From Dehalococcoidia bacterium (GTDB taxonomy: Bacteria; Chloroflexota; Dehalococcoidia; GIF9; AB-539-J10), in assembly GCA_040766535.1 (NCBI GenBank), contig JAXGQG010000004.1, forward strand, positions 25,936 to 89,935: a DNA stretch of 64,000 nt, given 5' to 3'. The notes below the pieces were generated by a model, which saw only the letters and a list, made by a program, of their open reading frames with translations, did no database searches and was not told the DNA's origin. Of this stretch, positions 11,334 to 53,511 are shown piece by piece. Position 1 is the first letter of the stretch. Each line of letters opens with the position of its first letter. A program made the translations under genes and the position numbers.

Positions 11334-11388
11334 GTTCTTGAAGACCAGAGCAATACGGCGTAGTGCCGGGATAGCGTGATGAGTACCT

Positions 11389-11417
11389 GCCGGGCGCGGC
11401 CACAGGCCGCGCCCGGC
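11389..11417. terminator. GC-rich perfect hairpin between convergent genes
   Basis: GCCGGGCGCGGC (11389-11400), loop CACAG, GCCGCGCCCGGC (11406-11417): a 12-bp perfect stem. Only TT follows on the + strand, so it is not a canonical U-tract terminator. Confidence 0.45.
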
Positions 11418-11438
11418 TTCCTGTCAAGAGCAGAAGCG

Positions 11439-11732: not shown

Positions 11733-11755
11733 GAGCAGTCTCCATTACCACGCGG

Positions 11756-12913: not shown

Positions 12914-13116
12914 GATAGTCTCCTTTCCGAAAGGGTTGCCTGACTCGGGATGTCCGGGCTCTCCGGGAGTCCCTTTGCGCCCGCTGCCATATGTACGGAG
13001 CGGCCGCTGTCGCAGAGGGGTAAGCAGTCTATCACGTGCTCGGCTGTGTCGCACACGTGAGGCGCCTCAGTACTCCGTGATTCGCTGCGCGTACATTGCC
13101 GGCGGCGGGCCGTAAC

Positions 13117-13150
13117 GAAGAAGGTGGCGGGGCGACCTGCCACCTTCTTC
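13117..13150 (-). terminator. hairpin downstream of the IlvD-family gene
   Basis: GAAGAAGGTGGC (13117-13128), 10-nt loop, GCCACCTTCTTC (13139-13150): a 12-bp perfect stem, 19 nt after the stop at 13169. No clear U tract. Confidence 0.4.
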
Positions 13151-13168
13151 CGGCAAGCGCTTCGCGTG

Positions 13169-32532: not shown

Positions 32533-33768
32533 GTGATATCGCTCGCTGTCCTTGCTCTCGTCTTTCTCCTCATTGCCGTGAGGCGGATCGGCCGCATCCG
32601 TTTGCAGATATGGCAGGTGATGCTCGCGGGGGCCGCTGCGGTACTTCTCACCGGCGAGATAGCACCTGGCGATGCGATTCGTGCCATCAACGCTGACGTC
32701 ATGGTCTTCCTCTTCGGCATGTTCGTGGTCGGACAGGCGATGGATCAGAGCGGCTATCTCTCGCATCTCTCCTACCGCATCTTCCGGTACGCTCGTACCA
32801 CCAATGGACTGCTGCTCGCCGTGCTGCTGGTGATGGCGTTGTTCTCAGCTCTGCTCATGAACGACACGATGGCGATCATCGGTACCCCAGTGGTCCTCTC
32901 TCTCGCGCGGTATGCCGGGATCCGCGCCAAGCCTCTACTGCTGGCGCTCGCCTGTGCTGTCACCGTGGGCAGTGTCATGAGCCCCATAGGGAATCCGCAG
33001 AATCTGCTGGTCGCAGTGCACGGGAATGTGGCCAACCCATTTGTCACGTTCGGGCGGTATCTGTTGCTGCCGACGATGCTCTGCCTGCTTGTGGTCTACG
33101 CGATGCTGCGCCTACTCTATCGCGCGGATTTCGACGGCTCGCCGGTGGTTCACGTCTATGCCTCGCTTTCCGATCCGGCCATGGCGAGGTTGTGCCGCAT
33201 CTCGCTTCTGGTTCTGGCGGTGATGCTGGGAGTCAAGGTATCTCTGGTGCTTGCCGGCATTCAGGTCGATTTTCGCCTTACGTATATCGCCCTTGCCGCG
33301 GCCCTGCCGATTCTTGCCGGAAGCGCGGACCGGGTCGGAGTAGTTCGCCGCATCGACTGGAGCACGCTCGTCTTCTTTGCCGCCATGTTCGTGCTGATGG
33401 AGAGCGTCTGGCTTTCTGGCTATCTGCAGCGGGCGATCGGGAGCGCCGGTCTGGACCTGTCCGCGCCTGGCGTGGTCATGACGCTCAGTGTGTCAGCCTC
33501 ACAGCTGCTGTCCAACGTCCCGTTGACGGCGCTCTACCTGCCGCTGCTGGCGGGGCTCGGTGCGTCCGTTGAGGCCTATATGGCGCTGGCGGCAGGATCG
33601 ACGATTGCGGGCTTGCTGACGATTCTTGGGGCGGCTAGCAACGTGATCATCATTCAGAATGCCGAGAAACGGGCGGGAGTGACGCTCACGTTTGCGGAGT
33701 TCGCGAGACTTGGTATTCCCTGTACGGCCGTCTGCGCGGGAGTCTACTGGCTGTTCCTGGCGGCATAG
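32533..33768 (+). CDS. ArsB/NhaD (citrate-transporter-like) family anion permease
   Basis: Track ORF (GTG start). DVMVFLFGMFVVGQAMDQSGY...LSALLMNDT...GSVMSPIGNPQNLLVA. Confidence 0.8.
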   Translation: MISLAVLALVFLLIAVRRIGRIRLQIWQVMLAGAAAVLLTGEIAPGDAIRAINADVMVFLFGMFVVGQAMDQSGYLSHLSYRIFRYARTTNGLLLAVLLVMALFSALLMNDTMAIIGTPVVLSLARYAGIRAKPLLLALACAVTVGSVMSPIGNPQNLLVAVHGNVANPFVTFGRYLLLPTMLCLLVVYAMLRLLYRADFDGSPVVHVYASLSDPAMARLCRISLLVLAVMLGVKVSLVLAGIQVDFRLTYIALAAALPILAGSADRVGVVRRIDWSTLVFFAAMFVLMESVWLSGYLQRAIGSAGLDLSAPGVVMTLSVSASQLLSNVPLTALYLPLLAGLGASVEAYMALAAGSTIAGLLTILGAASNVIIIQNAEKRAGVTLTFAEFARLGIPCTAVCAGVYWLFLAA

Positions 33769-33792: not shown

Positions 33793-34047
33793 TCACTCAT
33801 CCATGGCGCGTGCGCGCCGCTTGAGCAGGGCGTGGAAGCTATCTGCCGCCCGGCGGCGGTTCAGCTCTGCTGACTCGAATTCGCGCACCGCTGCGACATC
33901 GAACACGCGCGAAGGCCGCTTCTTTGTTTCGTCTGGGCCGGGATTGCCTAACACGACGTACTTCGAAATGAGTCCCCAGTATTCACGCTCGGCTTGCTGC
34001 ACGGCTTCCGCCCAGCGGCGGACTTCGTCTCCCTGCTTCGTTGACAT
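33793..34047 (-). CDS. small charged helical protein (paralog of 34697..34999)
   Basis: Track ORF 33793..34107; ATG 34047 after GGGAGGAC. EREYWGLISKYVV...VFDVAAVREFESAE lines up with DDKVWALTRKYLY...VFPNVAARDQYEEAK in the paralog. Confidence 0.5.
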   Translation of the reverse strand: MSTKQGDEVRRWAEAVQQAEREYWGLISKYVVLGNPGPDETKKRPSRVFDVAAVREFESAELNRRRAADSFHALLKRRARAMDE

Positions 34048-34123
34048 GTCCCCAGGTCCTCCCAGTCCGTCGCGATTGCTGTACGATGCACGCCGGGCCG
34101 CCCTCACGCCAGCGGAAAAGCGC

Positions 34124-34432
34124 TCATTCGTCTGTCGTGGTGTCCGGTTCCTCGGTCGCGGAGGGCGTCACCCCGCAGCCGCGGCTTGTTGCGACAGCTG
34201 CTGTGGTCTGATCGGCCACGGCGGACTTCATGCCTGCGGAGAAACCATCAGAGTAGCCCTTGGAGTAGCCATCGAGGTAACCTTGCTGATAGGCGTTCAG
34301 TACCGCCTCCTCCTGTGGCACGTCAGCAGGAGTCCCTCCATTGCCGCACGTGGTCAGCCCGATGAGGGCTATGATGAACACGAGGACGGTGCCGGCCGCC
34401 GCTGCGTAGTACAGGGTGTTCCTTCTATCCAT
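34124..34432 (-). CDS. small lipoprotein with GY-x-DG repeats
   Basis: Track ORF; RBS GGGAGGG. Lipobox-like LTTC. QQGYLDGYSKGYSDGFSAG. Confidence 0.55.
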   Translation of the reverse strand: MDRRNTLYYAAAAGTVLVFIIALIGLTTCGNGGTPADVPQEEAVLNAYQQGYLDGYSKGYSDGFSAGMKSAVADQTTAAVATSRGCGVTPSATEEPDTTTDE

Positions 34433-34696
34433 GCCCTATTCCCTCCCGCGAAGGTGAGGATGGTCGATGTGTCACTGGGGTAGCCTGTTGCCCGATCCAG
34501 CATACTGCCTCCGGAGCATCTCTTCCCTTACCCCGTCTCTGGCTCCCGCAGTCGCATCATCCAAGAGTAACGCTCCGCTGGCAACCGCGCAAATCAGTTC
34601 TCAATAGCGCTTGTTGCGCAAATGAAGGGTAATCCCGACTGTCACCAGCTACCTCGTCACGGGTGTGGTCGCTCTCAGTTCGCTTGAATTTCGCTT

Positions 34697-34999
34697 CTAC
34701 TGTCCCTTGTCCGGTTGCTCACGCTGCTGGCGTTCATGAGCGATACGCTCATAACGTTCCTCAGCCTCTCTCGCAACGCGCTTCGCTTCTTCATACTGGT
34801 CCCGTGCTGCCACATTGGGGAACACCAGTTGGCGCTGGCCGACATACGGCACTTCCTCGGGAGGGTACAGGTACTTGCGAGTGAGCGCCCACACCTTGTC
34901 ATCTGCAGCCTTGTATTCTTCAAGTGCGGCTTCCAGGCTTCGGTCCTCTGAGACGTGGTATCCCTCGAATGGCGTGCCACCTTTCGACTCTTCTTCCAT
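34697..34999 (-). CDS. small charged helical protein (paralog of 33793..34047)
   Basis: Track ORF 34697..35050; ATG 34999 after AGAGGAG. 10 nt after the stop of 35010..35654. Confidence 0.55.
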   Translation of the reverse strand: MEEESKGGTPFEGYHVSEDRSLEAALEEYKAADDKVWALTRKYLYPPEEVPYVGQRQLVFPNVAARDQYEEAKRVAREAEERYERIAHERQQREQPDKGQ

Positions 35000-35009
35000 G
35001 CTCACTCCT

Positions 35010-35654
35010 CTAATCTGCTGGTATGTTGACGGTGAAGTGGCACCAGGCATCCTGCCGTGCGGTGTTGGTCAGTATCAGCCAGTAGAAGTCGCTGCTGAGC
35101 GCCGTTATCGCCCAGTTCACGGTCCAGTTGGCGCCAACCCGCTCCAGTCCGCTGAAATACCCGGTCGTGCTGGCTTCTGTCTGGGGTAGATACATGTTGA
35201 TTCGTGACTGGTCATAGGGCGCACTCCCCGCTATCAGCGACACTGAGACCCCCTCATTACTGTCGCCGAGATCTGCTCCCATGGGGACGTTCGCCTCGAG
35301 CGCGACCTCAACGGTCTCCCCCTCTTTCAGGAAGAAACGCGTGTAGTAGCGGTTGTACCTGTTGAATGGAATGCCCAGTGCGACCACGTTGTCCAGGGTC
35401 ATATCCCGCCATAGTTGAGCGGCCTCGGGAGGCAGGGTTCCGAAGTTCTGCAGTACGAAGCTCGCCTCCGCCACGTATGGAGACTGGGCCGGACCCGACA
35501 AGAGGTCCACGTCGGCTGGTGGCTCTTCGCCGCCAAGAGTGACCGCGGCGGCGATGATGAGGGCGATGGCCGCAACGAGCGCAGCCGCAATCAGTATCAG
35601 TCTGCCGCCGCGCGGTCTACGCGATGGGACTTCTGGTTCTACTACTGTGGTCAC
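35010..35654 (-). CDS. membrane-anchored extracytoplasmic protein, function unknown
   Basis: Track ORF (GTG start). Single N-terminal TM (LILIAAALVAAIALIIAAAV), then a beta-rich-looking domain. Confidence 0.55.
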   Translation of the reverse strand: MTTVVEPEVPSRRPRGGRLILIAAALVAAIALIIAAAVTLGGEEPPADVDLLSGPAQSPYVAEASFVLQNFGTLPPEAAQLWRDMTLDNVVALGIPFNRYNRYYTRFFLKEGETVEVALEANVPMGADLGDSNEGVSVSLIAGSAPYDQSRINMYLPQTEASTTGYFSGLERVGANWTVNWAITALSSDFYWLILTNTARQDAWCHFTVNIPAD

Positions 35655-35845
35655 GGCACCCCAATTGTGTCACAAGTCCCTGCCGGAGTCACAGCCAACC
35701 GATTCAGGGAATCTCTCCCAATGGGCGCGAGGAAACATCCCGGCGTGAGGGGAGAGGAGGTGACACTGAGGTTAACGGCTGGCGAAACCATCCGGTTCAT
35801 TCCATCCGGCATTAAGCTGGCCTTACTATCGTCCTGATGCCGTGT

Positions 35846-37243
35846 TCATGATTTGGCCCTGTTGAGCCAGGAATCAGGGTCCACCTTCGATATTACGAGG
35901 AGATGTTTGCCTCCCGACGTCAGGGGGATCTCGTTGCACAACTCGACCTCAACGCGCACATCGCTGCCGATGGTTTCGTTGAGCATCGGAGGAATCCTTC
36001 TCATCATCTGTTCGAGATCCTCCGCCCGGGTATCGGGATGGGGAACGACACGGACCACGAGACGGTCGAGTTCCTCCTGTACGAACTGGAACTGGAGTAC
36101 CGGAAACTGCGCGAGTCGACTTGAGCCAATGTTGGAGCCCGTGATGCGGCGACCGGACGGGGTGTGGATGGTGTCGAATCTCCGCCCAACTACGTGGGCC
36201 AGGAGCGGCAAGGAGCGACCGCAGGGACAGTGGCCGGGGACAAAGGAGCCGGAATCACCGTTCTCATAGCGGATGAACGGCATAACGTAGTTGTGCAGGT
36301 TCGTGAGCAGAATGCGGCCTTCCTCTCCTGGAGGGAGGGGATTGCCTTCAGAGTCAGCGGTTTCTACCACTACATCCTCTGCTGCCACGTGCAGTCCCGT
36401 GTGTGCCGCGCATTCCATCGCGATCTCGAAGACCTCCTGACAGGAGTACTTCGAATGTGGCTCCTGTCTGAAGACATCCCGGATCCATTGCCGCTGGTGT
36501 TCAAACAGCTGCTCGCCGCCAGTGATGACCGAGTCCAGTGCGGGTGGGGTGACTCCTGTCTGACGTATCCATGCGGCTATGTACGCCACTGCGGTCGGGT
36601 AACCGGTGAGGCAGTGCAGTCCCGGACGCCGCAGGGTTGCGACGATGGCCGGCAGGGTGCTGAGTGTGATGTCGCGACCATCGAGTTCGGTCACTCGTTC
36701 GATGCGCCGGCTCATGTAGTGCAGCGCCTTCTCCTTGACGCCCTCCTTGTGGCGGGCCCTGCGGATCAGCATTCGGCCATCTCCCAGCCTCACCCCGGCG
36801 TATTCGAGGGCGCGGATGCCGCGGGCGAATCCATGTTCGCGCTGGTCCTCACTTGTGGTGTAGAAGGAGAGGGGAGTACCGGTCGATCCTCCCGTGGACG
36901 CCTTCCATACCGGCGTGCGCAGCGGCACGCGAGAGACAAGGTCGGCGGCGTTCAAACGCACCAGTTCTCGTGTCAGGACCGGCATTCGTGAAAGGTCCGT
37001 TGCGGAACGAATATCGTCCGGACCGAGGCCGCGGTCGTCCATGACCTTCCGGTAGTACGGCACGTTCTCGTATACGTGCCGGATCAGACGTCGAAGCCTC
37101 TCAGCCTGCAGTTCCTCGATGCGCTCCGCCGGCCACCATTGAGACTCCTCCAGTTCTCGGAGGTACCTCATGGTTTGAGTGCCGCGTATCAAGTCCATCG
37201 CCGGGGCGAGCACGCCGCGTGCGAAGCTACTGTATTTGACCAT
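35846..37243 (-). CDS. PaaK/CapK/F390-synthetase-type adenylate-forming ligase, array copy 1 (most downstream)
   Basis: Track ORF 35846..37288; ATG 37243 after CAGGAGGATTGG. Motifs SQWWP, VPYYR, STGGSTGTP, RYENGDSG, CPCGRSLP, GGKHL. Confidence 0.85.
   Translation of the reverse strand: MVKYSSFARGVLAPAMDLIRGTQTMRYLRELEESQWWPAERIEELQAERLRRLIRHVYENVPYYRKVMDDRGLGPDDIRSATDLSRMPVLTRELVRLNAADLVSRVPLRTPVWKASTGGSTGTPLSFYTTSEDQREHGFARGIRALEYAGVRLGDGRMLIRRARHKEGVKEKALHYMSRRIERVTELDGRDITLSTLPAIVATLRRPGLHCLTGYPTAVAYIAAWIRQTGVTPPALDSVITGGEQLFEHQRQWIRDVFRQEPHSKYSCQEVFEIAMECAAHTGLHVAAEDVVVETADSEGNPLPPGEEGRILLTNLHNYVMPFIRYENGDSGSFVPGHCPCGRSLPLLAHVVGRRFDTIHTPSGRRITGSNIGSSRLAQFPVLQFQFVQEELDRLVVRVVPHPDTRAEDLEQMMRRIPPMLNETIGSDVRVEVELCNEIPLTSGGKHLLVISKVDPDSWLNRAKS
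37131..37210. repeat. 80-bp near-identical patch shared with 38575..38654 (5' ends of ligase copies 1 and 2)
   Basis: Hand alignment: 76 of 80 positions are identical, whereas flanking sequence and the other three copies are clearly more diverged. Confidence 0.7.
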
Positions 37244-38714
37244 CCAATCCTCCTGTCCCAATGCTACGGGGTGCGGTATCGGCCCCATTCTCGTCCTCGA
37301 TAATCGTGTCGAGATGGCGCGGCGCGATCTTCGATACGACGACCATGTGTTTGCCCGCGGGAGTTGGCATGATCCAGGGTACGGCTCTCACGGTCACGCT
37401 GATCTCGCTTCCCATGCTTCGGCTCAGGGTATGGCTGAGTTCTCGTTCTTGGTCCACTCTGGCGGTGGGATCCACGTCGTCGTGCCACACAATGAATGCG
37501 GTGACGCTCCCTATGTCCTCCTGGAGAATCTGGAACTGGCGGATTCCGAGCGCAGAGAATGCTTCCAGGTCTATGTCCGCAGCGAATATGCGTCTCCCGC
37601 TCGGGGTGACAATAAGCTCAGTTGTGCGGCCAATCATGTCCTTGAGGCGGGGCAGGCTGCGTCCGCAACGGCATGGTTCAGGGTCCGCGGAACCGATGTC
37701 ACCGATGGCGTATCGTATGAAGGGCATGGCGTAGTTGTGCAAGTTCGTTAAACACAATGAGCCGGTCTGTCCGGCTGGAACCGGCAGGCCACGCTCGCCA
37801 GTGATCTCAACGATTACGTCTTCGGCCTGCACGTGCACACCTTCATGTGCATCGCACTCCGCGGCGATATCGTAGATCTCGTACGAACTGTACTTGGAGT
37901 GCGGCTCGGGACCCCATGTGGCGCGGAGCAGGCGGCGCTCGTGCGGAAACAACTGCTCTCCTCCACATACGATCGCGCGCACAGGCGGCATCGACGCGGA
38001 GTGAATGCGAGCGTAGTCCGCGACGAGGGCGAGAAGGGGAGGTGAGCCACCGAGAGAAGTGAACCTCCCTCGGGAAAGCTGTGCAACAACGGCTGACAGG
38101 CTCTCATCGGAAAGGGAACCGTAGTTGATGGCAACTGAGCGCCTCACCCGCTGACTGGCGTCATTCAGGAGCTGTTCCCGTCTTCTCGCGTAGTGTCTCG
38201 GCCGACTCACGGTGGCGTGGCGGTCTCCGATGTTCACACCGGCCCATTCCAGGGCACGGAACGAACGGGCCAATCCACGGGAGAACTGATCCTCGACCGT
38301 ACTGTAGAAGTGCAGAGGTTCTCCTGTGGATCCACTTGTGGACGTGGGGCGTAGCGCAGATCTCGGGACGTTGTCAGCGATGAGGGAGTCACCAGCCGAA
38401 CGGATCGCCTGTCTGGTGAGCACCGGCAATATGGAGAGGTCCCCGGATGTTCGGATATCGTCGGGTGTGAGTCCCGCTCGCTGCATTATCTGCCGGTAGT
38501 ACGGCACATGTACGTATGCGTGCTTCACAAGAGCCTGCAGTCGCCTGGATTGCAACTCCTCGATACGTTCGGCGGGCCACCATTGAGACTCCTCCAGTTC
38601 CCGGAGGTGCCTCATGGTCCGAGTGCCGCGTATCAAGTCCATCGCCGGGGCGAGGCCGTAGCGGACGATCTGGTTGTACAAGCTCACGGTGCCCCCACGT
38701 GATGCGCGGGCCAT
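37227..38714 (-). CDS. PaaK/CapK/F390-synthetase-type adenylate-forming ligase, array copy 2
   Basis: Track ORF. An alternative GTG start at 38687 aligns better with the paralog N-termini. Motifs SQWWP, VPYYR, TSGSTGEP, RYAIGDIG, CRCGRSLP, AGKHM. Overlaps copy 1 by 17 nt. Confidence 0.85.
   Translation of the reverse strand: MARASRGGTVSLYNQIVRYGLAPAMDLIRGTRTMRHLRELEESQWWPAERIEELQSRRLQALVKHAYVHVPYYRQIMQRAGLTPDDIRTSGDLSILPVLTRQAIRSAGDSLIADNVPRSALRPTSTSGSTGEPLHFYSTVEDQFSRGLARSFRALEWAGVNIGDRHATVSRPRHYARRREQLLNDASQRVRRSVAINYGSLSDESLSAVVAQLSRGRFTSLGGSPPLLALVADYARIHSASMPPVRAIVCGGEQLFPHERRLLRATWGPEPHSKYSSYEIYDIAAECDAHEGVHVQAEDVIVEITGERGLPVPAGQTGSLCLTNLHNYAMPFIRYAIGDIGSADPEPCRCGRSLPRLKDMIGRTTELIVTPSGRRIFAADIDLEAFSALGIRQFQILQEDIGSVTAFIVWHDDVDPTARVDQERELSHTLSRSMGSEISVTVRAVPWIMPTPAGKHMVVVSKIAPRHLDTIIEDENGADTAPRSIGTGGLDGQIQ
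38575..38654. repeat. 80-bp near-identical patch shared with 37131..37210
   Basis: See the partner repeat. The mismatches are T/C, A/G and TT/CC. Confidence 0.7.
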
Positions 38715-38786
38715 GCGGTGATTCCGCTGGTTGACTCGCAGGCAGCATGGTGTACGCCGTACGCATACGACACGGCAGGGACTCCC

Positions 38787-40181
38787 TCACCCACATCCTT
38801 CTTGGTGGCCACGTCCGGATACCCGCGAAATCATGAACAGATGCTTGCCCTCCTCCGTCGGTTCGATGCGGTCCACGAAGTCGACCTTCAGAGCCATCTC
38901 AGAGCCGAGACTGGACTCGAACATGGCGAGCACCCTCTTCTCGAGGTCGTTTCTTTGAGCCTGGCCCGCATCGGGTGGAGCAACCAGCCGCAGTAGGACA
39001 CTGTCAACGCTCTCCTGGACGAGTTGATATTGCCGCATCCCCAGCAGGGCAAGGTCCTCCAGGAACAGCGTGCCGAAGAACACTCGCGAGCCGCTCCGCG
39101 TGATGAAGAACTGGTCTCGCCTGCCTACCAGTGCGCTGATACGGGGCAGGGTCCGTCCGCATGGACAGTCTCCCTCCACAAGTGATCCGGAGTCTCCGAT
39201 GTCATAGCGGAGGAAGGGCATGCCGTAATTGTGCAGGTTGGTGATTACGATCCGCCCCTCCGCACCCGGTGGCAGGGGCCTCCCCTCGCTGTCCAGGATC
39301 TCCAGCACAAGGTCCTCCATCGAAACGTGGAGCCCCTGGTGAGCACTGCACTCGGATGCGATTTCGAGCGCCTCGGATGAACTGTAGTCCGAATGGGGCT
39401 CGGCGCCGAAGACCTCACGAATGATGCGGCGCTCGTGGCTGAGGATCTGCGCTGCTCCCGTCACGATGGACGGTACCGCCGGCATCGGCACACCATTATC
39501 CTTGATGAATCCGGCGATCAGAGCGAGTGCGTTTGGATACGCACGGATTCCGGATAGGTGAGATTCGGCAAGGCGGCGGACCACCTGCGGAAGAACCTCG
39601 TCCGAGAGAATATCCACGGGGATATTCTGGCACCGCTGCAGACGATTGCTGAAGGATTGAAGTATGCGGCCACGGCGGGTCCTGGCGTAGTGAATCCTCC
39701 CGATCCGTGCGATGCGGTCGCCAAGCGCGATACCTGCCCAGGACATGGCGCGGATGCTCCGGGCGTATCCGTGGTCGATCTGGTCCTCCCTGGTGCTGTA
39801 GAAGCGCAGAGGAGTGCCGGTGGAGCCGCTGGTATTCATGGCGTGCAGGCGTCTTCGCGGCCAGTTGTCGGCGACCAGGCTCTCCAGGTTCTGCTGGACT
39901 TGCTGACGCGTGAGCACAGGCAGCAGCGCCAGGTCGGCCGCCGTACGGATGTCTGAAGGGGTCATATGGCGTTGGGTCATCACCTGCCGGTAGTACGGCA
40001 CGTGTTCATACGCGTGGGCGATGAGCCGCTGCAGTCTCAGGTTCTGAATTTCTTCTAAACGCTCTCTGGGCCACCACTGCGACTCTTCGAGTTCCTTCAG
40101 GAACCGCATGGTGTGCGTCTTCCTGAGTGTGTCGACAATCGGCGCCATCACGTGGCGCGCCACCGTGTTGTACGCGCTCAT
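38787..40181 (-). CDS. PaaK/CapK/F390-synthetase-type adenylate-forming ligase, array copy 3
   Basis: Track ORF; RBS GGGGTGAGG. Motifs SQWWP, VPYYR, TSGSTGTP, RYDIGDSG, CPCGRTLP, EGKHL. Confidence 0.85.
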   Translation of the reverse strand: MSAYNTVARHVMAPIVDTLRKTHTMRFLKELEESQWWPRERLEEIQNLRLQRLIAHAYEHVPYYRQVMTQRHMTPSDIRTAADLALLPVLTRQQVQQNLESLVADNWPRRRLHAMNTSGSTGTPLRFYSTREDQIDHGYARSIRAMSWAGIALGDRIARIGRIHYARTRRGRILQSFSNRLQRCQNIPVDILSDEVLPQVVRRLAESHLSGIRAYPNALALIAGFIKDNGVPMPAVPSIVTGAAQILSHERRIIREVFGAEPHSDYSSSEALEIASECSAHQGLHVSMEDLVLEILDSEGRPLPPGAEGRIVITNLHNYGMPFLRYDIGDSGSLVEGDCPCGRTLPRISALVGRRDQFFITRSGSRVFFGTLFLEDLALLGMRQYQLVQESVDSVLLRLVAPPDAGQAQRNDLEKRVLAMFESSLGSEMALKVDFVDRIEPTEEGKHLFMISRVSGRGHQEGCG

Positions 40182-41584
40182 AGCGCCTCACCCCGCTTGG
40201 TGACGAAGGGCCTTCGCAGGTCTTCGAGGTTTGACACGAAGGACAGTCGCTTCCCTGACAGGTTCATCTCGATCTCGTTCATGTATCGCACCTCAACTTG
40301 GGCGCTTCCGCGCAAATACGTGTTCAGGAGATCGGAAACGCGCCGCTGCAGGTGCAGGCAATCCGCACTCTGGCCGGGTGCCGCCGGTACAACCCTGAGA
40401 AGAAAGCGGTCCAGGGACTCCTGCACCAGCTGATACTGGACCGCGCCGTCCGGCAGTAGTGGCTCCAATGGGATATCCGTTGCCGCAACTCGTTCGCCTG
40501 ATGCCGAGCGCAGGTACTCACGGGTGCGCCAGACGAGAGGACTCATCAGCGGCAATCCTCGACCGCAGGGACACACGTCGCTGCGGAGCGTCCCGATATC
40601 GCCGGGCGCGTAGCGTATGAAGGGCTGTCCGTAGTTATGCAGGCTGGTGATCAGCAGATGCCCAGGCGTACCCGGTGGTACCGGCCGCGCCTCTGAGTCG
40701 ACCACCTCGATGATGAAGTCCTCGGCGAGTACGTGCAGGCCGTCCTTGACCTCGCACTGGCCAGCTACCTCGTGCAACTCGTTTGAGCCATAGCGTATGA
40801 AGGGAATGCTGCCGAACACCTCGGTTAGGATACGCTCCTGTCTCTCTGACAGCCGCTCGCCGGCAACGCAGACTGAGGGTATCCGGGGACAGCTCAGTCC
40901 GCCGTTCTTCATGAAAGCAGCTATCAGGACGAGCGTGCTCGGATATGAGTGCACCGTTCGCGGCCGAATCTGCTGCAGCAGGCGGGCGATGGCCGCGAGG
41001 TTCTCCTCGCGCACACTCATCACGTCCACCCTGGTCAGCCGCTGCAGCCGATGGCTTAACCTGGGAGGCGGCGTGATCTCCACACCCGAGGTACGTTGCT
41101 GCCTGATAGACACGTGTGCTTCACCCAGGTTCACCCCGGTCCATTCCAGGGTCAACGCCCAGCGCGCATAGGCATAGGTCAGCCGCTCCTGCCGCGTCGA
41201 GAAGAAGGTGAGCCGTTCGCCGGTGGTGCCTCCAGACCAGCCTGCTCTCAACTGGTCCCGGGGTACCGCATCACTGATAAGCTCGGCCGCGTGTTCGCGG
41301 ATATCGTCCTTTGAGAGAACAGACAGCAACCTAAGGTCCTCGGGAGTCTGTATGCTGTCGGGACTGAGACCACGTTCATCAAACATGCGGCGGTAGTACG
41401 GGACGTGGCCATAGGCGTGCTGCACCAGTGCCCGGAGGTGCGTGGCTTGTTGGACTTCGATCCGGTCACGTGGCCACCACTGCGAGCGTTCAAGGTGTCC
41501 CAGGCGGCTCATCGTCCCTGTGCCGCGCGCCACGTCGAACGCGGGCGCAAGAAACCGCCGCACCAATGCTGAGTAGATGCTCAC
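40178..41584 (-). CDS. PaaK/CapK/F390-synthetase-type adenylate-forming ligase, array copy 4
   Basis: Track ORF (GTG start). ATGA-type overlap with copy 3. Motifs SQWWP, VPYYR, SGGTTGER, RYAPGDIG, CPCGRGLP, SGKRL. Confidence 0.85.
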   Translation of the reverse strand: MSIYSALVRRFLAPAFDVARGTGTMSRLGHLERSQWWPRDRIEVQQATHLRALVQHAYGHVPYYRRMFDERGLSPDSIQTPEDLRLLSVLSKDDIREHAAELISDAVPRDQLRAGWSGGTTGERLTFFSTRQERLTYAYARWALTLEWTGVNLGEAHVSIRQQRTSGVEITPPPRLSHRLQRLTRVDVMSVREENLAAIARLLQQIRPRTVHSYPSTLVLIAAFMKNGGLSCPRIPSVCVAGERLSERQERILTEVFGSIPFIRYGSNELHEVAGQCEVKDGLHVLAEDFIIEVVDSEARPVPPGTPGHLLITSLHNYGQPFIRYAPGDIGTLRSDVCPCGRGLPLMSPLVWRTREYLRSASGERVAATDIPLEPLLPDGAVQYQLVQESLDRFLLRVVPAAPGQSADCLHLQRRVSDLLNTYLRGSAQVEVRYMNEIEMNLSGKRLSFVSNLEDLRRPFVTKRGEAL

Positions 41585-41696
41585 TGGAGTGAACTCCTGT
41601 TCGTTCCCTGTCGCGTCCTCATGCTGCGCCTTTCAATACCGGGGGATGAGGACCCAATCGTGTGCATGCTTGACTATCGCCGCTCCTCGCCGGGTG

Positions 41697-43076
41697 CTAC
41701 GTGTGCTCGTTTCCAATCATCGAGATGAGAAACAGGTGTTTGCCTGCGGCCGTTGGCTCGATGCTCTGAACTACCTGGACATCGACTTCCACCTCGGGCC
41801 CCAGCGTGTAGCCGAAGTGTGTCGCCACGCGGGAGGGAAGAGCCTCCACTTCGTTTGGAGACAGTCCCGATCCGGGCACCAACTTCACCGTGACATGGTC
41901 GACCCTCTCCTGAATGAACTGGAACCGGCGCACCCCCATCGGGCCCAGTGACGAAGAACCAAGAGTGAGTGGAGAGAGGCGCTTTCCGGATGGCGTGTGG
42001 ATGATGTTGCCCGTCTTGCCGACCACTGCGCCGATGCGCGGCAATTGCCTGCCGCACGGGCACGCGCCGTCCAGCACGAAGCTCTCGTCGTCAGTGTTGT
42101 AGCGGATCAGAGGCATTCCGTACTCGTGGAGATTCGTTACCAGAACGTGGCCGAATTGCCCTGGAGGCAACGGTCTGCCGCTGTCGTCCACGATCTCGAC
42201 GATGAGGTCCTCCGCGTTCACGTGCATTCCCTGGTGCGCCTCACACTCCATCGCGATCTCGAAGTTCTCGAAGGAGCTGTAGCACGAGAACGGCTGCCTG
42301 CCGAACACCTGGCGCAGCAGCGCTCTCTGCTCGTCAAAGAGCTGCTCTCCTCCTACGACGATGACGCCTACGTCCGGAGCGTCTCTCCCTGTGTCCCTGA
42401 TGTGCTCGCCGATGATGCAGATGGCGCTGGTGTAGCCGCGGAGGGCCGACGGTTTCGCCCTGGCGATCCTTTCGACCACGTGGGGGAGTGTCGCGTCTGT
42501 GAAGGTGGAGCAGTCGATGAACGTGTCCCTCGAAAGGCGGCTGGCGAGGGATTGCAGCAGACTCGCACGCTCGCTCCCGGGCAAGCGCCCCTTCGCCACG
42601 AGACAGGTACGGTCGCCCGGGTAGATTCCGGCCCATTCGAGCGCCCGCATCGATCTGGCGTAGCCGTGCGTCCATCGTCCCTCTCGCGATGCGACGAAGC
42701 ACAGTGGCGTTCCCGTCGATCCCCCCGTCTCTCCCTCCAACAGTCGACCGTGTGGGAAACCTTCGGCCAGCAACTCCGGAGACCGCATGCGGATGTCTTC
42801 CTTGGTCAGGATGGGCAGCCGTGGCAGGTCGGAAGGTCTCGCGATGTCCGCCGGGCTGATGCCATGCTCATCCATCAGGCGCCGGTAGTACGGCACGCGG
42901 TCATACACGTACCGTATGAGATGCTGTAGCCGCTGCGACTGGAGGTCTTCAATGCGGTCGCGTGGCCACCACTGCGACTCCTCGAGCTCCCCGAGACAGC
43001 GCATGCTGCGGGTGCCCCGAATGCGGTCGTATGCGGGTGCGAGGAAACGCCGAGTAAGAGTGCGGTAGAAACTCAT
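41697..43076 (-). CDS. PaaK/CapK/F390-synthetase-type adenylate-forming ligase, array copy 5 (most upstream)
   Basis: Track ORF. Motifs SQWWP, VPYYR, TGGSTGTP, RYNTDDES (DD in place of GD), CPCGRQLP, AGKHL. Confidence 0.85.
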   Translation of the reverse strand: MSFYRTLTRRFLAPAYDRIRGTRSMRCLGELEESQWWPRDRIEDLQSQRLQHLIRYVYDRVPYYRRLMDEHGISPADIARPSDLPRLPILTKEDIRMRSPELLAEGFPHGRLLEGETGGSTGTPLCFVASREGRWTHGYARSMRALEWAGIYPGDRTCLVAKGRLPGSERASLLQSLASRLSRDTFIDCSTFTDATLPHVVERIARAKPSALRGYTSAICIIGEHIRDTGRDAPDVGVIVVGGEQLFDEQRALLRQVFGRQPFSCYSSFENFEIAMECEAHQGMHVNAEDLIVEIVDDSGRPLPPGQFGHVLVTNLHEYGMPLIRYNTDDESFVLDGACPCGRQLPRIGAVVGKTGNIIHTPSGKRLSPLTLGSSSLGPMGVRRFQFIQERVDHVTVKLVPGSGLSPNEVEALPSRVATHFGYTLGPEVEVDVQVVQSIEPTAAGKHLFLISMIGNEHT

Positions 43077-43181
43077 CTGCCGTGCGGCCGCCTGGCCCGT
43101 TCACCCCATTATGCAGTGACCAGAAACGGTACACAACGGGCGCTGACACGGGTCTCCTGCCGGCGCCGGTAGAGCGGCGGA

Positions 43182-44985
43182 TTATTCTCTCTCACTTCTG
43201 GCCGCAGCCCTGAGCCGCTGCTGCTGCGTGAGCAGCTTCTTGCGCAGGCGGATGTTCTGCGGCGTGACTTCAACCAGCTCGTCTTGCGCCACGAAATCGA
43301 GTGACTGCTCCAGGCTCAGCTTGATCGGAGGCTCGAGCTTGATCGCGATGTCCGCTGTCGACGAGCGCATGTTCGTCTTCTTCTTCTCTTTACACACGTT
43401 CACCGCGATATCCTGCTGGCGGGGGTTGATGCCGACGATCATGCCTTCATACACCGCGATCCCCGGTTCGATGAATGTCTGCCCGCGCCCCTGGGTGTTT
43501 TCGAGCCCGTACGCGACAGCTGTCCCTTCGTCGGAGGCGACCAGGACTCCGCTGCGCGTCGGCGCCAGTTCCCGCCGCCATGGTCGGTAGCCGAGAAACA
43601 CGGAGTTGAGTACGCCCTGTCCACGGGTCGCAGTCAGGAAGGCACTGCGGAAGCCGATGAGTCCCTTGGTCGGAATGTGGTACTGCAGCCGGATGTTGCC
43701 GTTGCCGTCACTGTGCATGTCGACCAGTTCGGCCTGACGTCGGCTCAGCATCTCACTGATTACGCCGTAGAACTCCTCGCGGGTGTCGATGAGGAGGTCC
43801 TCCACAGGCTCCATGAGCGTGCCGTCCATGTACTTGGTGATGGCCTCGGGTTTGGACACCTCGAATTCGTAGCCCTCCCGGCGCATCGTCTCGATGAGTA
43901 TGGCGAGGTGCAGTTCTCCACGTCCCTTGACCAGAAAGGTGTCGGGACTGTCTGTGTCCTGCACCCTGAGACTCAGGTTCGTCTCCAGTTCCTTGTGTTG
44001 CGGCGCTTGCGCAACTGCCGGGTGGTGCAGAACTCCTCCCGTCCGGCGAACGGTGACGTATTCACGCCGAAGGTCATCTCCACCGTCGGCTCGCCGATGG
44101 ATATTCGCGGCAGCGCCTCTGGTTGCTCCGGAGCCGCCAGCGTGTCGCCGATGGTGATCTCCTTCATGCCGGTGATGGCCACGATATCGCCTGCCTCCGC
44201 CAACGGCACTCCATACCGGGTAAGCCCAAGGTGCGTGAACACCTCGGTGACCTCGAATTGCGTCGCTGAACCATCGGACGCGATGCAGACAAGTGATTGC
44301 CTGGGGCTGATACTTCCTCTCCATACCCGCCCGATGGCGATGCGGCCCCGCGGTTGTCGTAGTCCAGGTTCGAGACCATCATCCGAAAGGCGCCCTCCTG
44401 AATGACGGGAGGCGGAACGCGCTGCAGGATGCAGTCGAACAGCGGGGAGACGTCACGGCCCGGTGCGCCGGGGTCGGTGGTCACGGTTCCTTCCTTCCGT
44501 ACAACACCGGGAAATCGAGTTGCTCCGCGGTAGTGCGAGGTCGAGGAACAAGATCCCGAGTGAGTCGAAGCACGTCGGCGACGCGTGCGTCTTTGCGGTC
44601 TATCTTGTTGATGACCACGATGTAGGCAAGGTTCCGTCTCATTGCCCGGGCAAGCACGTAGCGTGTTTGCGGCATCGGTCCTCCGCCGCATCCACCAGAG
44701 CAGACACCCATCGGCCATGTTGATCACCCTTTCGACTTCGCCGCTGAAATCAGCGTGTCCGGGCGTGTTCATGATGTTTATCCTCACGCCCCGGTACTCG
44801 ACGGCGGTGTTCTTCGCCATGATGGTGATGCCGCGTTCTCGTTCCAGCGCATTTTGGTCCATGACCAGCTCCCCCCACGTTCTGATTGTCCCCGAACACG
44901 GTCGTCTTTATAGCGCGTCGACGAGCACCTTCCGGCGCTGTTCATCGTGAATGACACGCCGGCGGTGTTGCGGATGTCGTTTCAT
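43182..44985 (-). pseudogene. typA: typA/bipA translational GTPase, heavily decayed
   Basis: The C-terminal roughly 250 aa are intact in track ORF 43182..44324 (GRGELHLAILIETMRREGYEFEVSKPE...). The N-terminal two thirds are scattered over at least 3 frames: [45 protein letters not shown] (44164..44862), [34 protein letters not shown]...[11 protein letters not shown] (44481..44711), [18 protein letters not shown]...VNTSPFAGRE (43973..44242). The region where the P-loop AHVDHGKTT should be reads VIHDEQRRKV and is followed by an in-frame TAA. Confidence 0.8.
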
Positions 44986-50419: not shown

Positions 50420-51568
50420 ATGAGAAGTGTCTTGCGGATCCTGACCATGGTCGGTGTGGTGAGTGCGCTCGTGCTGGGTTCTGTCGGCTGCGCGCCCGAA
50501 ACCACTCCTACCACTCCCACCACCCCCACGACTCCGACCTCTCCCACCACTCCCACCACCCCCACTACACCGTCCCAGCCGTCCACCCAGACCGTCAAGT
50601 GGGTGCAGGCGACCCCCTGGGTTGCGGCCGAGCTTGGCTTTCAGGGCATAGAACTACGAAATCAGATCCTGAAGGACATCAGCGGCGGCCGGTTCATCAT
50701 TGAGTCGCATCCTTCCGGCGCGTTGATGGGTGCCGAGGACGTGTTCGATGCCGCGCATGACGGCACGATCGATGCCTTCAACGCAACCCTTCACACATTC
50801 ATCGGTAAGATCCCCGCATCCCCGATGTTCGCCGCCATGCCGCTGGGCCTGAAGCGCGATGAGTACCAGGCGTGGTACGACTATGCCGGCGGCAAGGATC
50901 TCCTGATGGAGATGCTTGAGCCCTACAACTTCGGCTATGCGCAGCCGGTTGTCTTCCAGACACCCGAGGGCCTTTGCTGGTCCAACGTGAAGCTTGACAA
51001 CCTCGCCGCGTGGAAGGGTCTCAAGTTCCGCACGAAGGGTATCTGGGCGAACATACTGCAGAATCCTCAGGTGGGCGCGGCTGTGACGACGCTCTCCAGC
51101 TCAGAACTCTACTCCGCACTGGAGCGCGGCATCCTCGATGCGCTGGAGTACTCTACGCCTGGAAGCGACCTGCCCCTCGGCTTCTACGAGGTAACGAAAT
51201 ACCTGATGGTTCCTGGCTTCCATCAGCCGGCCACCGTGCTGTCTGACGTGGTGAACAAGGATTCCTGGAACAAGCTTCCCGCCGATATGAAGGCCATGTA
51301 TGACGCAGCCAACAGGGCGGCCGGCGTGCAGTGGTACGGCAATTACGTACTCGCCGATGCCGAGGCACTGGCCTTCTACGCGTCCCTTCCGTCTCTCGAA
51401 ATCGTCGTCTGCCCCGCGGACCTGCAGAAGACGTTCGCCGGTTTTGCTGATCAGGAGTACGCCAAGAACTCCGCTGCTGATCCCTTCTTCAAGAAGGTGT
51501 ATGACAGCCAGCGTGAATTCAAGGCCAAGTACGACTTCTTCAGCGGCTATCAGTCGATGAACTTCTAA
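50420..51568 (+). CDS. dctP: TRAP transporter substrate-binding protein (DctP family), lipoprotein with Thr/Pro linker
   Basis: Track ORF; RBS GAGAGGAGG. Lipobox LGSVGC. Body GLKFRTKGIWANILQ..GAAVTTLSSSELYSALERGILDALEYSTP. Confidence 0.85.
   Translation: MRSVLRILTMVGVVSALVLGSVGCAPETTPTTPTTPTTPTSPTTPTTPTTPSQPSTQTVKWVQATPWVAAELGFQGIELRNQILKDISGGRFIIESHPSGALMGAEDVFDAAHDGTIDAFNATLHTFIGKIPASPMFAAMPLGLKRDEYQAWYDYAGGKDLLMEMLEPYNFGYAQPVVFQTPEGLCWSNVKLDNLAAWKGLKFRTKGIWANILQNPQVGAAVTTLSSSELYSALERGILDALEYSTPGSDLPLGFYEVTKYLMVPGFHQPATVLSDVVNKDSWNKLPADMKAMYDAANRAAGVQWYGNYVLADAEALAFYASLPSLEIVVCPADLQKTFAGFADQEYAKNSAADPFFKKVYDSQREFKAKYDFFSGYQSMNF
50501..50572 (+). repeat. imperfect 9-nt (ACC ACY CCN) tandem repeat encoding (TTP)n linker
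   Basis: Encodes TTPTTPTTPTTPTSPTTPTTPTTP directly after the lipobox cysteine. Confidence 0.8.
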
Positions 51569-51580
51569 GAGTTGAGAAAC

Positions 51581-51615
51581 GGGCTCTGGCCATGGGCAAA
51601 ACCGGGCCAGAGCCC
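51581..51615 (+). promoter_or_regulatory. stem-loop between dctP and dctQ
   Basis: GGGCTCTGGCC (51581-51591), 13-nt loop, GGCCAGAGCCC (51605-51615): an 11-bp perfect stem. No U tract. Plausibly an mRNA-stability or attenuation element favouring binding-protein excess. Confidence 0.45.
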
Positions 51616-51641
51616 TCCCCTTCTCTAGAGGCAGGTTTGAC

Positions 51642-52178
51642 ATGCAGAATGAAAAAAGTGTGCAGGGTGGCAGTGGGATTCTCTCGTGGATCGACAGAGC
51701 CATATCGTGGTTAGGAGAAGCATCAGGGTTTCTTGTTCTGCCCCTCATCGCGGTAGTCGTGGTTGAGGTCTTCTCCCGGTATGTGCTGCATTCTCCGACC
51801 ATCTGGGCATGGGAGATGAGCCGGTTCTTCGGCGGCTCCATGTTCGTTCTTGCCCTTGGCTACATCTACCTTCGGGACCAGCATGTACGGGTGGACATCC
51901 TGTATAACCGCTGGAGCCCGCGTACTCGCGCCATCATCAATGTGGTGGTAGTCCTCATCATCGTCCTGCCGGTGCTCATCCCCGCGCTTCGTGTCATGTA
52001 CAACACAGCCGCGTTGTCGTGGAGCATAAAGGAAGTCAGCTCGGACAGCGCCTGGCGCGTGCCGATCTACTGGTTCAAGGCCATAATGCCGTTCTCGATG
52101 TTCCTGCTGCTCGTTTCCGTGATCGTCAAGTTCATTCGAGACCTGCGCGTGGTCTTCAAGGGGGAGTCCAATGCTTGA
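51642..52178 (+). CDS. dctQ: TRAP transporter small permease (DctQ family)
   Basis: Track ORF. Four TM segments. Position between the P and M genes. Confidence 0.8.
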   Translation: MQNEKSVQGGSGILSWIDRAISWLGEASGFLVLPLIAVVVVEVFSRYVLHSPTIWAWEMSRFFGGSMFVLALGYIYLRDQHVRVDILYNRWSPRTRAIINVVVVLIIVLPVLIPALRVMYNTAALSWSIKEVSSDSAWRVPIYWFKAIMPFSMFLLLVSVIVKFIRDLRVVFKGESNA

Positions 52179-53511
52179 TTTCACGCCTTCCCCTCAAATG
52201 GTAACCCTCATCATGTTTGGCCTCCTGGTCGTCGGTATCTTCACCGGTTTTCCCCTTGGCTTCGTGATTCTCGGCGTGGCCTTCATCACGGGCCTCCTGT
52301 TCATGGGGCCGACTCGAGTCTATGGCATTGTGGGTGCACACACCTACAAGCTGATGGTGAACTACATTCTCCTCGCGCTTCCTCTGTTCGTGTTCATGGG
52401 CTCGATGATTGGCTCTTCAGGCATGGCTGAACGCTTGTTTAGCACCCTCTATACGATTCTTGGCGGCATGCGTGGTGGACTTGCGTTGACGGTGATCGTA
52501 GTCTCCACCGTGTTTGCCGCCTGCACCGGCGTTATTGCTGCCTCGGTCACGACCATGGGCATCATCGCCATGGCCCCGATGGTTGCCCGGGGGTACGATA
52601 GGTCGCTCTCAGCGGGCGCTGTGGCGGCAGGTGGTACCCTCGGCATCCTCATTCCCCCCAGCATCATGCTGGTTATCTATGGCCCGATGGCCGAGATCTC
52701 GGTTGGCAAGCTGTTTGCCGGAGCCATCTTTCCAGGTCTCCTGCTCTCAGCCTTGTACATCCTATACATCATCGTGTACTGCCGCGTGAAGCCGCATGCC
52801 GGCCCTCCGATTCCACTGGAGGAACGGGAGGCGGTGCCTGCGGCCCGGAAGCTATTCCTTGCCGTTGTGTACATGGTGCCGCCGCTGGCCATCATTTTTG
52901 CGGTTCTCGGGACTATCCTGTTTGGCGTTGCGACGCCGACGGAGGCTGCCGGAATGGGCGCCTTCGCTTCGATTGTCGTGGCAGCAGCCTTCAAGTCCCT
53001 CAACTGGCAGACGCTCAGGAAAGCCATTTCTGAGACGTTGAGAATCACTGCGTTCGCCGGTCTCCTCACTATCGGCGCGGGCGTCTTCGCTGCCATCTTC
53101 CTGTACCTTCGCGGTGGTGAGTTTGTCACCGCGATGGTTACCAACGTGCCTGGAGGCAAATGGGCCAGCCTGCTCATCATCCTGGTAGTTATCTATCTCC
53201 TGGGCATGTTCATCGAATGGATCGGTTCCATCTACATCGTCGTACCGGTCTTCACGCCGATTGGGGCCGCCCTCGGATTCGATCCCGTCTGGTTCGCCAT
53301 CATCATCTGTGTTGCCTACCAGACCGGATTCCTCAGTCCGCCGAACGCGCATGCCATCTTCTACCTCAAAGCGGTCTCGCCGCCGGAGGTGACCCTTGGA
53401 GACATCATTAAGGGTGTTGTGCCGTTCATCGGACTGATTACCATCGGGCTTGTTCTATGCATAGTCTTCCCGAGCATCGTGACGTGGTTGCCCTCGGTGA
53501 CGGTAGGCTAG
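52171..53511 (+). CDS. dctM: TRAP transporter large permease (DctM family)
   Basis: Track ORF, 446 aa, highly hydrophobic. 8-nt overlap with dctQ. Confidence 0.9.
   Translation: MLDFTPSPQMVTLIMFGLLVVGIFTGFPLGFVILGVAFITGLLFMGPTRVYGIVGAHTYKLMVNYILLALPLFVFMGSMIGSSGMAERLFSTLYTILGGMRGGLALTVIVVSTVFAACTGVIAASVTTMGIIAMAPMVARGYDRSLSAGAVAAGGTLGILIPPSIMLVIYGPMAEISVGKLFAGAIFPGLLLSALYILYIIVYCRVKPHAGPPIPLEEREAVPAARKLFLAVVYMVPPLAIIFAVLGTILFGVATPTEAAGMGAFASIVVAAAFKSLNWQTLRKAISETLRITAFAGLLTIGAGVFAAIFLYLRGGEFVTAMVTNVPGGKWASLLIILVVIYLLGMFIEWIGSIYIVVPVFTPIGAALGFDPVWFAIIICVAYQTGFLSPPNAHAIFYLKAVSPPEVTLGDIIKGVVPFIGLITIGLVLCIVFPSIVTWLPSVTVG

Follow-up and report, generated by a model that had tools for sequence, protein, structure and literature searches.

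Five consecutive genes on the minus strand of a 64,000-nucleotide stretch of a Dehalococcoidia bacterium genome (contig JAXGQG010000004.1; this whole stretch is the window of what follows) form an accessory, copy-number-variable operon of anciently diverged CapK-type ligases, here termed A to E in order of transcription. The enzyme fold and the subfamily are known; the finding is the paralog expansion, and the function is one that we infer. What is unusual is that the operon holds ligases only, that 0-7 ancient paralogs occupy a single hotspot, and that this hotspot lies away from genes of glycan or coenzyme A (CoA) pathways. An original prediction, made from the sequence of the window, had described five head-to-tail ligase open reading frames (ORFs) of one family, with the motifs and spacing given below, all of which is confirmed by the ORF listing and by alignment. 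The array is not a one-off: a conservation search found an orthologous locus with 0-7 copies in a clade of Dehalococcoidia.

All five genes are co-oriented and consecutive across 35846-43076 (Table 1). In order of transcription, A and B are separated by a gap of 112 nucleotides (nt), B and C overlap by 4 nt (ATGA), a 72-nt gap follows between C and D, and D and E overlap by 17 nt. The ORF of E reaches to 37288 (480 amino acids, aa), and the Met that aligns with the starts of the other copies gives 465 aa. Protein identity is 38-46% to the first copy, with ~90 invariant columns in a MAFFT alignment of the five, and DNA identity between the copies is 48-54%. Common to all are the N-terminal LE.SQWWP...VPYYR block, the LHNY/LHEY..P.IRY..(G/D)D hinge region, C.CGR.LP and GK(H/R). 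The P-loops read STGGSTGTP, TSGSTGEP, TSGSTGTP, SGGTTGER and TGGSTGTP and have the A3 form (S/T)(S/T/G)G(S/T)TG.P, with GER replacing G.P in B. The A5 Glu (E285), A7 Asp (D345) and A10 Lys (K461; numbering of the first copy) are invariant in the five, and the A8 G(R/K) hinge has Arg in the ligases but Lys in copy A and in most of its wider orthogroup, A/a.

The five ligases are, as judged from their sequences, old paralogs, neither a recent amplification nor an assembly artefact. A neighbour-joining tree assigns each of the five to an orthogroup of its own that other genomes share, and contains a sixth orthogroup, F, that is missing from the window array. Comparison with the closest relative, L001, yields ratios of nonsynonymous to synonymous substitution (dN/dS) of 0.152 for A, 0.145 for B, 0.145 for C and 0.172 for E, comparable to the 0.05-0.17 of the flanking genes. 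The orthogroup of D is missing from L001, and its window member is 63% identical to the L003 ortholog. Assembly collapse or expansion of a repeat is excluded because DNA identity among the copies is only 48-54%, and independent assemblies of other metagenomes (L001, L002) contain the same array. Dosage redundancy, decay of paralogs or a repeat artefact of assembly would be in keeping with the local decay seen in the neighbouring typA pseudogene, and with ligase fragments in relatives (176 aa in L008, 273 aa in L012 and 95 aa in L007). Against this explanation stand the level of divergence in both protein and DNA, orthologs elsewhere, dN/dS of ~0.15, intact motifs and independent assembly from several samples, and it is refuted by the data, with next to no probability left to it. 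The original prediction had likewise taken the copies as intact and diverged rather than as extra dosage, and the loss of catalytic residues and the assembly error that it had proposed checking for were neither of them found.

Two features that it had listed as deviations, GGTTGER and DD, are indeed present, but on the evidence of their conservation they are signatures of orthogroups and not decay. Ligase B, the most divergent orthogroup, has the P-loop SGGTTGERL, the A5 context YGSNELHEVAGQC and the A10 context MNLSGKRL, and GER is kept in 8 of 9 B orthologs, together with the B-specific A5 and A10 contexts. Ligase A is marked by LHEYGMPLIRY..DDES and GKTG; in the wider A/a group, whose members are found as singletons at other places in related genomes too, LHEY...DD is kept in nearly all members and GKTG in most (signature checked in 15 orthologs). 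A screen of specificity positions gave four multi-state columns, and 27 listed columns in which a single orthogroup, mostly B, deviates. The position preceding the A5 Glu holds F in ligase A, N in B, Y/F in D and Q/R/N in E; in C it is S in the window copy and S/F/Y across the orthologs. Different substrate pockets among the ligases are therefore plausible from the sequences at hand.

A separate observation concerns the 5′ coding parts of D and E, where a 118-nt segment is 86% identical between the two; over the same segment the other copies are 60-64% identical, and overall paralog identity is ~50%. The tract suggests a short gene conversion between adjacent paralogs.

Table 1. Features of the window and of related loci, with the composition of the array in relatives (in transcription order; orthogroups from the neighbour-joining tree)
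Feature	Position	Strand	Size or copies	Description and basis
Ligase A	41697..43076	minus	459 aa	First gene of array; ORF, PaaK-superfamily matches, tree
Ligase B	40178..41584	minus	468 aa	ORF, NCBIfam, alignment
Ligase C	38787..40181	minus	464 aa	ORF, NCBIfam, AlphaFold2 (AF2) model
Ligase D	37227..38714	minus	486-495 aa	495-aa ORF; NCBIfam, tree
Ligase E	35846..37243	minus	465 aa	Last gene of array; from homologous Met at 37243
118-nt segment of E	37107-37224		118 nt	5′ coding
118-nt segment of D	38551-38668		118 nt	5′ coding
Array spacer	43077..43181	minus	105 nt	Between typA pseudogene and ligase A
Weak TTGTGT-17-CATAAT	about 43136-43108			Seen by eye
typA/BipA pseudogene	43182..44957	minus		Upstream boundary; split Pfam/NCBIfam matches, indel map
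16-nt element GGACTTGTGACACAAT	35664..35679	minus	16 nt	Just upstream of p214; blastn against L082 gap
p214	35010..35654	minus	214 aa	Membrane-anchored beta-sandwich protein; downstream boundary
p117	34697-35050			Downstream small gene
p102	34124-34432	minus		N-terminal hydrophobic segment ending ..LTTCG, then YQQGYLDGYSKGYSDGF repeat-like motif
p104	33793-34107	minus		Conserved gene
CitMHS	32533-33768			Carboxylate transporter
TRAP DctPQM	50420-53511			Carboxylate transporter
Acyl_transf_3	4567-5763			Glycan-like gene
Epimerase	22857-23822			Glycan-like gene
L082, typA to p214	9682-10000		319 nt	Gap on 735-kb contig
L082, GGACTTGTGACACAAT	about 9976-9991		16 nt	Identical to window element
L007, fused B and E	8450-11401		983 aa	One ORF inside orthologous array
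L039, broken array	9508-13552			Many short ORFs in long-read assembly
Array, window			5	A B C D E
Array, L001			4	A B C E; proteins ~88% identical to window
Array, L003			3	A C D
Array, L084/L085			4	A C D E
Array, L004			7	a a B F C D E
Array, L006			7	a a B C D E E
Array, L007			about 5	F F B~E (fused)
Array, L008			6	F B (fragment) F E C; one copy a 176-aa fragment
Array, L009			5	D B F F C
Array, L012/L086			1 + truncated copy	L012: A + truncated C-type
Array, L082			0	none
Two-unit fusions				P0177, P0180, P0183, P0184, P0189-P0194, P0196, P0198-P0200, P0202, P0211, P0224, P0277

With regard to family, all five ligases match NCBIfam models of the PaaK superfamily (E 1e-35 to 1e-44), and every curated cutoff tested is missed, by a factor of 2-10. 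The PaaK models TIGR02155 and NF041878 give 81-95 bits (cutoff 646.3) and 106-126 bits (cutoff 700). The F390 synthetase FtsA model TIGR03335 gives 56-86 bits against 458.7 and the F390 synthetase-related model TIGR02304 23-44 against 252, both weak matches (E 1e-15 to 1e-24). FlxY (NF053551) scores 100-125 against 520 and BagE/FevW (NF041217) 46-68 against 800, and even the top NCBIfam match of all five, the DVU_1553 AMP-dependent CoA ligase model NF045666, scores 123-151 against 300. In the copy of Pfam used here the sole AMP-binding match was a sub-threshold one for ligase B, and PF27533 (CapK_C) is not in that copy; CapK_C is precomputed, however, on P0001, a protein 100% identical to ligase C, and on array genes of L001, L003, L084 and L086. 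On this footing the five belong by sequence to the CapK_C-type subfamily and are not PaaK or F390 synthetase, two of the three types named in the original prediction, with the proviso that membership rests on the precomputed match for ligase C and orthologs. Superfamily membership is shared with F390 synthetase FtsA and its related proteins at scores far under their cutoffs, and it is implausible that cofactor nucleotidylation would be needed five times over.

The adenylate-forming, PaaK-type fold that had been predicted is upheld both by the superfamily matches and by modelling. The AF2 model of ligase C (pLDDT 91.2, pTM 0.89) has a two-domain PaaK-type fold with an N-terminal helical microdomain. 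Foldseek against the PDB returns as its top matches BT_0428 (9e-33), PaaK1 (1.7e-31) and PaaK2, AjiA1, HCL, NatL2 and ClxA, over a range of E 1e-22 to 1e-32, and a profile of the five ligases searched against PDB sequences finds BT_0428 at 1e-44 (1.2e-44) and PaaK1/2 at 1e-34. Since the catalytic motifs are kept, the PaaK fold is modelled and dN/dS is like that of flanking genes, the five copies look like functional ATP-dependent carboxylate-adenylating enzymes, as far as sequence and model can tell. With Burkholderia cenocepacia PaaK1/PaaK2 (2Y27/2Y4N/2Y4O) and BT_0428 (4R1L), at 19-24% identity, the ligases share the two-domain fold, P-loop, A5 Glu, A7 Asp, A10 Lys and N-terminal helical microdomain, and with BT_0428 also the CPCGR motif. 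They differ from PaaK in an extra N-terminal extension of ~35 aa, in having no paa or ior genes nearby, and in the aryl-pocket segment (..FGYGLFTGGLG..), which is not conserved and is replaced by a poorly conserved Arg/Lys-rich segment.

Resemblances of this kind are the starting point for reading the array as a battery of acyl- or aryl-CoA ligases, in which every paralog would have an organic acid of its own to convert to the CoA thioester, so widening the range of carboxylates (aromatic, alicyclic, hydroxy, fatty) that the anaerobe can ferment or assimilate. The closest structures and top sequence matches, BT_0428, PaaK1/2 and HCL, are CoA ligases, and the NCBI name of the orthologs is 'phenylacetate--CoA ligase family protein'. 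Paralogous ligases of this fold with differing pocket size and substrate tolerance within one genome are on record in PaaK1 and PaaK2 of B. cenocepacia (PMC4498308). That pair is 69% identical and each member lies among paa genes, whereas the window copies are 38-46% identical and have no pathway genes. The scale by which the PaaK (81-126 bits against 646-700) and DVU_1553 models are missed, and the replacement of the PaaK acyl-pocket segment, count against the CoA-ligase battery, to which the genomic evidence is brought below.

The locus itself is informative. Homologs of the window ligases come almost all from metagenome-assembled genomes of Dehalococcoidia/Chloroflexota, in which a region of ~20 kb is collinear, in the order DegV, p186, typA, ligases, p214, p117, p102, p104 and (convergent) CitMHS, followed beyond this transporter by a YgjP-like gene, a membrane protein, a methyltransferase and an ABC-2 transporter. 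At this one place the number of ligase copies is 0, 1, 3, 4, 5, 6 or 7 (Table 1). An extreme is L082, where typA is followed, after a short gap without any ligase or ligase remnant, by p214. In L007 and L009 the array comes after DegV/p186 and not typA, making p214, downstream, the sole constant neighbour; in every case where the contig includes an intact 3′ array end, p214 follows it directly. In one long-read metagenome-assembled genome, L039, the orthologous array is broken into many short ORFs, probably through frameshift errors of assembly and not biology.

Orthogroup content varies and orthogroups have been gained and lost independently, and for this reason the ligase modules look, from comparison of the loci, individually dispensable and parallel, not steps in an obligate series. 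The choice had initially been left between different substrates and successive ligations, and it is the latter that is now disfavoured. A serial assembly line would add building blocks to a scaffold to give an oligo-amide or oligo-ester, in the manner of the Mur ligases, of NIS synthetases or of the benzoxazole ligases NatL2, AjiA1 and ClxA. The last three join two aromatic acids by ester or amide bonds and have the fold of the window ligases (6WUQ and 6SIW-6TM4 being the entries for AjiA1 and NatL2, and 9S3L/9S45 for ClxA; Foldseek E 1e-22 to 1e-26, ~19-24% identity). Tight packing, co-orientation and overlapping stops and starts of the window genes would suit such a line, as would the existence of fused di-ligases in the family. 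However, the differences in orthogroup content between close genomes would break an obligate series, and in no genome is the array accompanied by genes for precursor supply, tailoring, export or resistance. The natural-product clusters to which AjiA1, NatL2 and ClxA belong include enzymes for precursors and cyclisation, of which none is beside the array; supply of aminohydroxybenzoate or 3-hydroxyanthranilate and an amidohydrolase cyclase, specifically, were not found next to it. Serial assembly is accordingly rated improbable. PDB 6SIW was also considered as a heterodimeric PaaK-like ligase and ruled out, its two chains differing by one residue and the series being that of NatL2.

Constancy of p214 raises a different proposal, that the ligases modify, by acylation or ligation, the products of the downstream genes p214, p117, p102 and p104. 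Besides the position of arrays with an intact 3′ end directly upstream of p214, loss of p214 coincides with a truncated second ligase in L012/L086/L087, the last ligase overlaps the p214 start in L081, and the ligase array and p214 families are limited to the same clade. But L082 retains p214, p105, p104 and p85 without any ligase, p214 has its own conserved upstream element, collinearity over ~20 kb alone leads one to expect the adjacency, and p214 is mostly predicted to be extracellular and the ligases cytoplasmic. The four downstream products are thus largely rejected as partners or substrates, given their presence in L082 without a ligase, and the proposal is highly improbable. In the same vein, the original prediction had correctly named the neighbours (a decayed typA, a membrane-anchored protein and a small helical one), and it is the place of the downstream proteins in the system that cannot be demonstrated, in view of L082.

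For the function of the ligases, the company kept by more distant relatives is the main guide. The five-ligase profile finds 36,416 representative clusters (50% identity) at E<=1e-3 and 9,718 at E<=1e-30, so that CapK-type ligases are common, and annotations regularly misname them 'phenylacetate-CoA ligase' or 'F390 synthetase'. Scanned with the N-terminal LE.SQWW and LHNY..P patterns, a genome collection yielded relatives (30-35% identity) from archaea and from numerous bacterial phyla. Among 131 ORFs within 4.5 kb of 22 such distant loci, 24 encode family 4 or family 1 glycosyltransferases (GT4/GT1), 6 GT2 enzymes, 5 Asn-synthase-type amidotransferases and 4 Wzy_C proteins, with epimerases, hexapeptide acyltransferases and methyltransferases also included. 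Similar company is kept by several of the nearest Chloroflexota relatives that lie outside the arrays: the ligase gene in L010 shares a 4-nt overlap with a GT2 gene, that in L036 has GT2-like genes on both flanks, that in L023 comes after a Wzx-type flippase, and those in L034 and L037 adjoin GT4. In L030/L031 the order is GT4, GT4, GNAT, methyltransferase, ligase, two genes without assignment and a FemAB-like GNAT; in L028 and L032 a radical-SAM/SPASM protein precedes the ligase, L028 also having a methyltransferase. Two representatives are fused to GT4, P0219 (827 aa) as ligase-GT4 and P0272 (897 aa) as GT4-ligase. The CapK-type homologs (PF27533; 'capsular polysaccharide biosynthesis protein CapK' or COG1541-type genes of polysaccharide loci), then, which share CapK_C with the protein identical to ligase C and with orthologs, and share the LE.SQWW and LHNY..P.IRY blocks with the window ligases, sit among GT4, GT2, Wzy and Asn-synthase genes, in contrast to the window array, which has no such genes and has five diverged copies in a row (0-7 in its relatives). 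The association, being one of gene neighbourhoods, favours glycan biosynthesis without being unanimous. The earlier view that the array maps to no described pathway holds for the array, as far as the literature searched goes; it does not extend to CapK_C-type relatives, which do sit beside glycan biosynthesis.

Fusions of a second kind bear on quaternary structure. About 18 of the best 150 representatives are two-unit fusions (830-983 aa) with halves 26-64% identical, a range that is the same as that of the window paralogs, and in some the N-terminal unit is without a C-terminal domain. In L007, B and E units are fused inside the orthologous array. In the PaaK-type fold the P-loop is exposed and dimerisation via the N-terminal domain is required (PMC8388817); given this requirement and the two-unit fusions, diverged paralogs may act as heterodimers.

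Taken together, these observations lead us to favour, tentatively and with a confidence just short of even, parallel and probably dimeric ligases, possibly heteromeric, that decorate an envelope glycan, with an acceptor other than CoA. The N-terminal domain of each would bind ATP at the P-loop and adenylate a carboxylate, as motif and fold conservation indicate, and the C-terminal domain with the A10 lysine would help transfer the acyl group to a nucleophile. The five would act in parallel on different substrates, as suggested by the independent gain and loss of orthogroups and by A4/A5-region residues that vary by group. They probably work as dimers, perhaps as heterodimers of paralogs, on the pattern of the obligate PaaK-type dimer and the natural two-unit fusions. 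Acyl, aminoacyl or amide decorations would be attached to an envelope glycan, or to its precursors, made elsewhere in the genome. The acceptor is likelier to be an amine or hydroxyl of the glycan or precursor than CoA, to go by the subfamily's genomic company and GT4 fusions, and acceptors other than CoA have a precedent within the PaaK fold in AjiA1, NatL2 and ClxA (PMC8388817; Foldseek).

A bolder variant makes the array a combinatorial toolkit, in which homo- and heterodimer pairings would each attach a different carboxylate or amine decoration and gain or loss of modules would generate strain-level surface diversity. It is speculative and rather unlikely. Were it true, it would provide the first defined function for a large CapK-type subfamily (about 9,700 50%-identity clusters at E<=1e-30).

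Several points weigh against decoration of a glycan. The operon has no glycosyltransferase, flippase or sugar-nucleotide gene, and neither this array nor the orthologous ones are located in a polysaccharide locus. A Pfam scan covering 52 of the window ORFs detected as sole glycan-like genes Acyl_transf_3 and an epimerase, both distant. The relatives whose company is informative are at 30-40% identity, and what holds for them may not carry over to a clade-specific expansion. With heterodimers, the difficulty is that gene pairing is inconstant, the overlaps (B-C and D-E in the window) varying between genomes. Membership in the CapK-type family gives no function, the reaction of the family itself being uncharacterised: no characterised member was found in the literature searched, and we know of no member of the subfamily with a demonstrated reaction. 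Finally, close singletons in Dehalococcoidales can have CoA-ester neighbours, namely a MaoC dehydratase and a ketosynthase in L019, a thiolase and a ChsH2-type OB protein in L026, an HpcH-like lyase in L011 and an acyl-CoA dehydrogenase in L017, and the beta-eliminating lyase, PhzF, 2-hydroxyacid dehydrogenase and amidohydrolase next to the relatives in L014/L022 were counted as non-glycan context.

These singletons are at the same time an argument for the battery of CoA ligases, as are the carboxylate transporters of the window, CitMHS and TRAP DctPQM, and its sugar-acid dehydratases; a changing copy number would also suit a changing substrate range. Yet in none of about 12 genomes is a CoA-ester-processing enzyme in or next to the array, and the subfamily is overall glycan-associated and GT4-fused. 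Activation to CoA thioesters is on this evidence the main rival reading, though a less likely one. In that event the array would mark an expanded capacity for carboxylate activation, while a glycan target, if that is what it proves to be, would matter for the envelope chemistry and strain diversity of anaerobic Dehalococcoidia, which are poorly known. Such probability as remains goes to an explanation not considered here.

Whichever applies, the locus is a natural experiment, a ligase-only operon whose orthogroups have been gained and lost among close relatives, and as such is well suited to substrate assignment through expression and phylogenetic profiling, with the array-less L082 genome as a natural control. 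The two-unit and GT4 fusions yield testable hypotheses on heterodimers and on the glycan target. No description of tandem CapK- or PaaK-like arrays was found in the searchable literature.

As to the remainder of the window, the 52 scanned ORFs include no carrier protein, no condensation, nonribosomal peptide synthetase, polyketide synthase or thioesterase domain, no glycosyltransferase and no paa or ior gene, in agreement with what the original prediction had reported of most of these, and paa/ior neighbours are likewise absent from the syntenic loci of relatives. The rest is housekeeping or metabolic: a TRAP transporter, a two-component system, an ABC-2 exporter and sugar-acid dehydratases.

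Upstream, typA carries at least 10 frame-breaking indels at ~44957-43999, in the GTPase half, relative to the intact 607-aa typA of L001; the C-terminal ~262 residues alone are still in frame. In all relatives examined typA is intact (607-613 aa). As neighbouring genes are intact, the indels are not sequencing noise. A functional partnership of typA with the array was considered and rejected, as it is a pseudogene here and does not border the array in L007 or L009.

If the array has a promoter, the one plausible site that we infer for it is the 105-nt spacer separating the typA pseudogene from ligase A. The weak TTGTGT-17-CATAAT within it was not called in a consensus scan, in which promoter-like matches in the region numbered 3 against 3.0 expected from shuffles. 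Terminator-like matches were 11 against 6.0 +/- 2.6, with no convincing internal terminator, and the window has no Rfam family and no tRNA.

Downstream, the p214 family comprises 53 clusters, all from this Dehalococcoidia clade and all at least 48% identical, with no Pfam domain. Its AF2 model (pLDDT 65) has a transmembrane helix and a beta-sandwich, and a structure search gave weak PPC/collagen-binding-domain-like matches (best E 4.5e-3), none at E<=0.001. The element GGACTTGTGACACAAT, identical in array-less L082, may serve the p214 unit as promoter or operator, which would give p214 a control region of its own. That L082 has this unit without ligases, and with GGACTTGTGACACAAT identical, argues for p214 and the small genes behind it being a unit separate from the ligase array. 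A comparison of p117 and p104 as possible paralogs was not significant (E 0.05).

Two minor observations may be added. Genes in the window at 655-1500, 2247-3530, 11756-14842 and 50420-53511, for an RraA-like aldolase, a LarA N-domain protein, a galactarate/altronate-type dehydratase, an IlvD/EDD dehydratase and TRAP DctPQM, suggest use of sugar acids or organic acids. A plus-strand ORF at 33803-34483 (226 aa) is probably spurious, the conserved genes there being the minus-strand p102 and p104.

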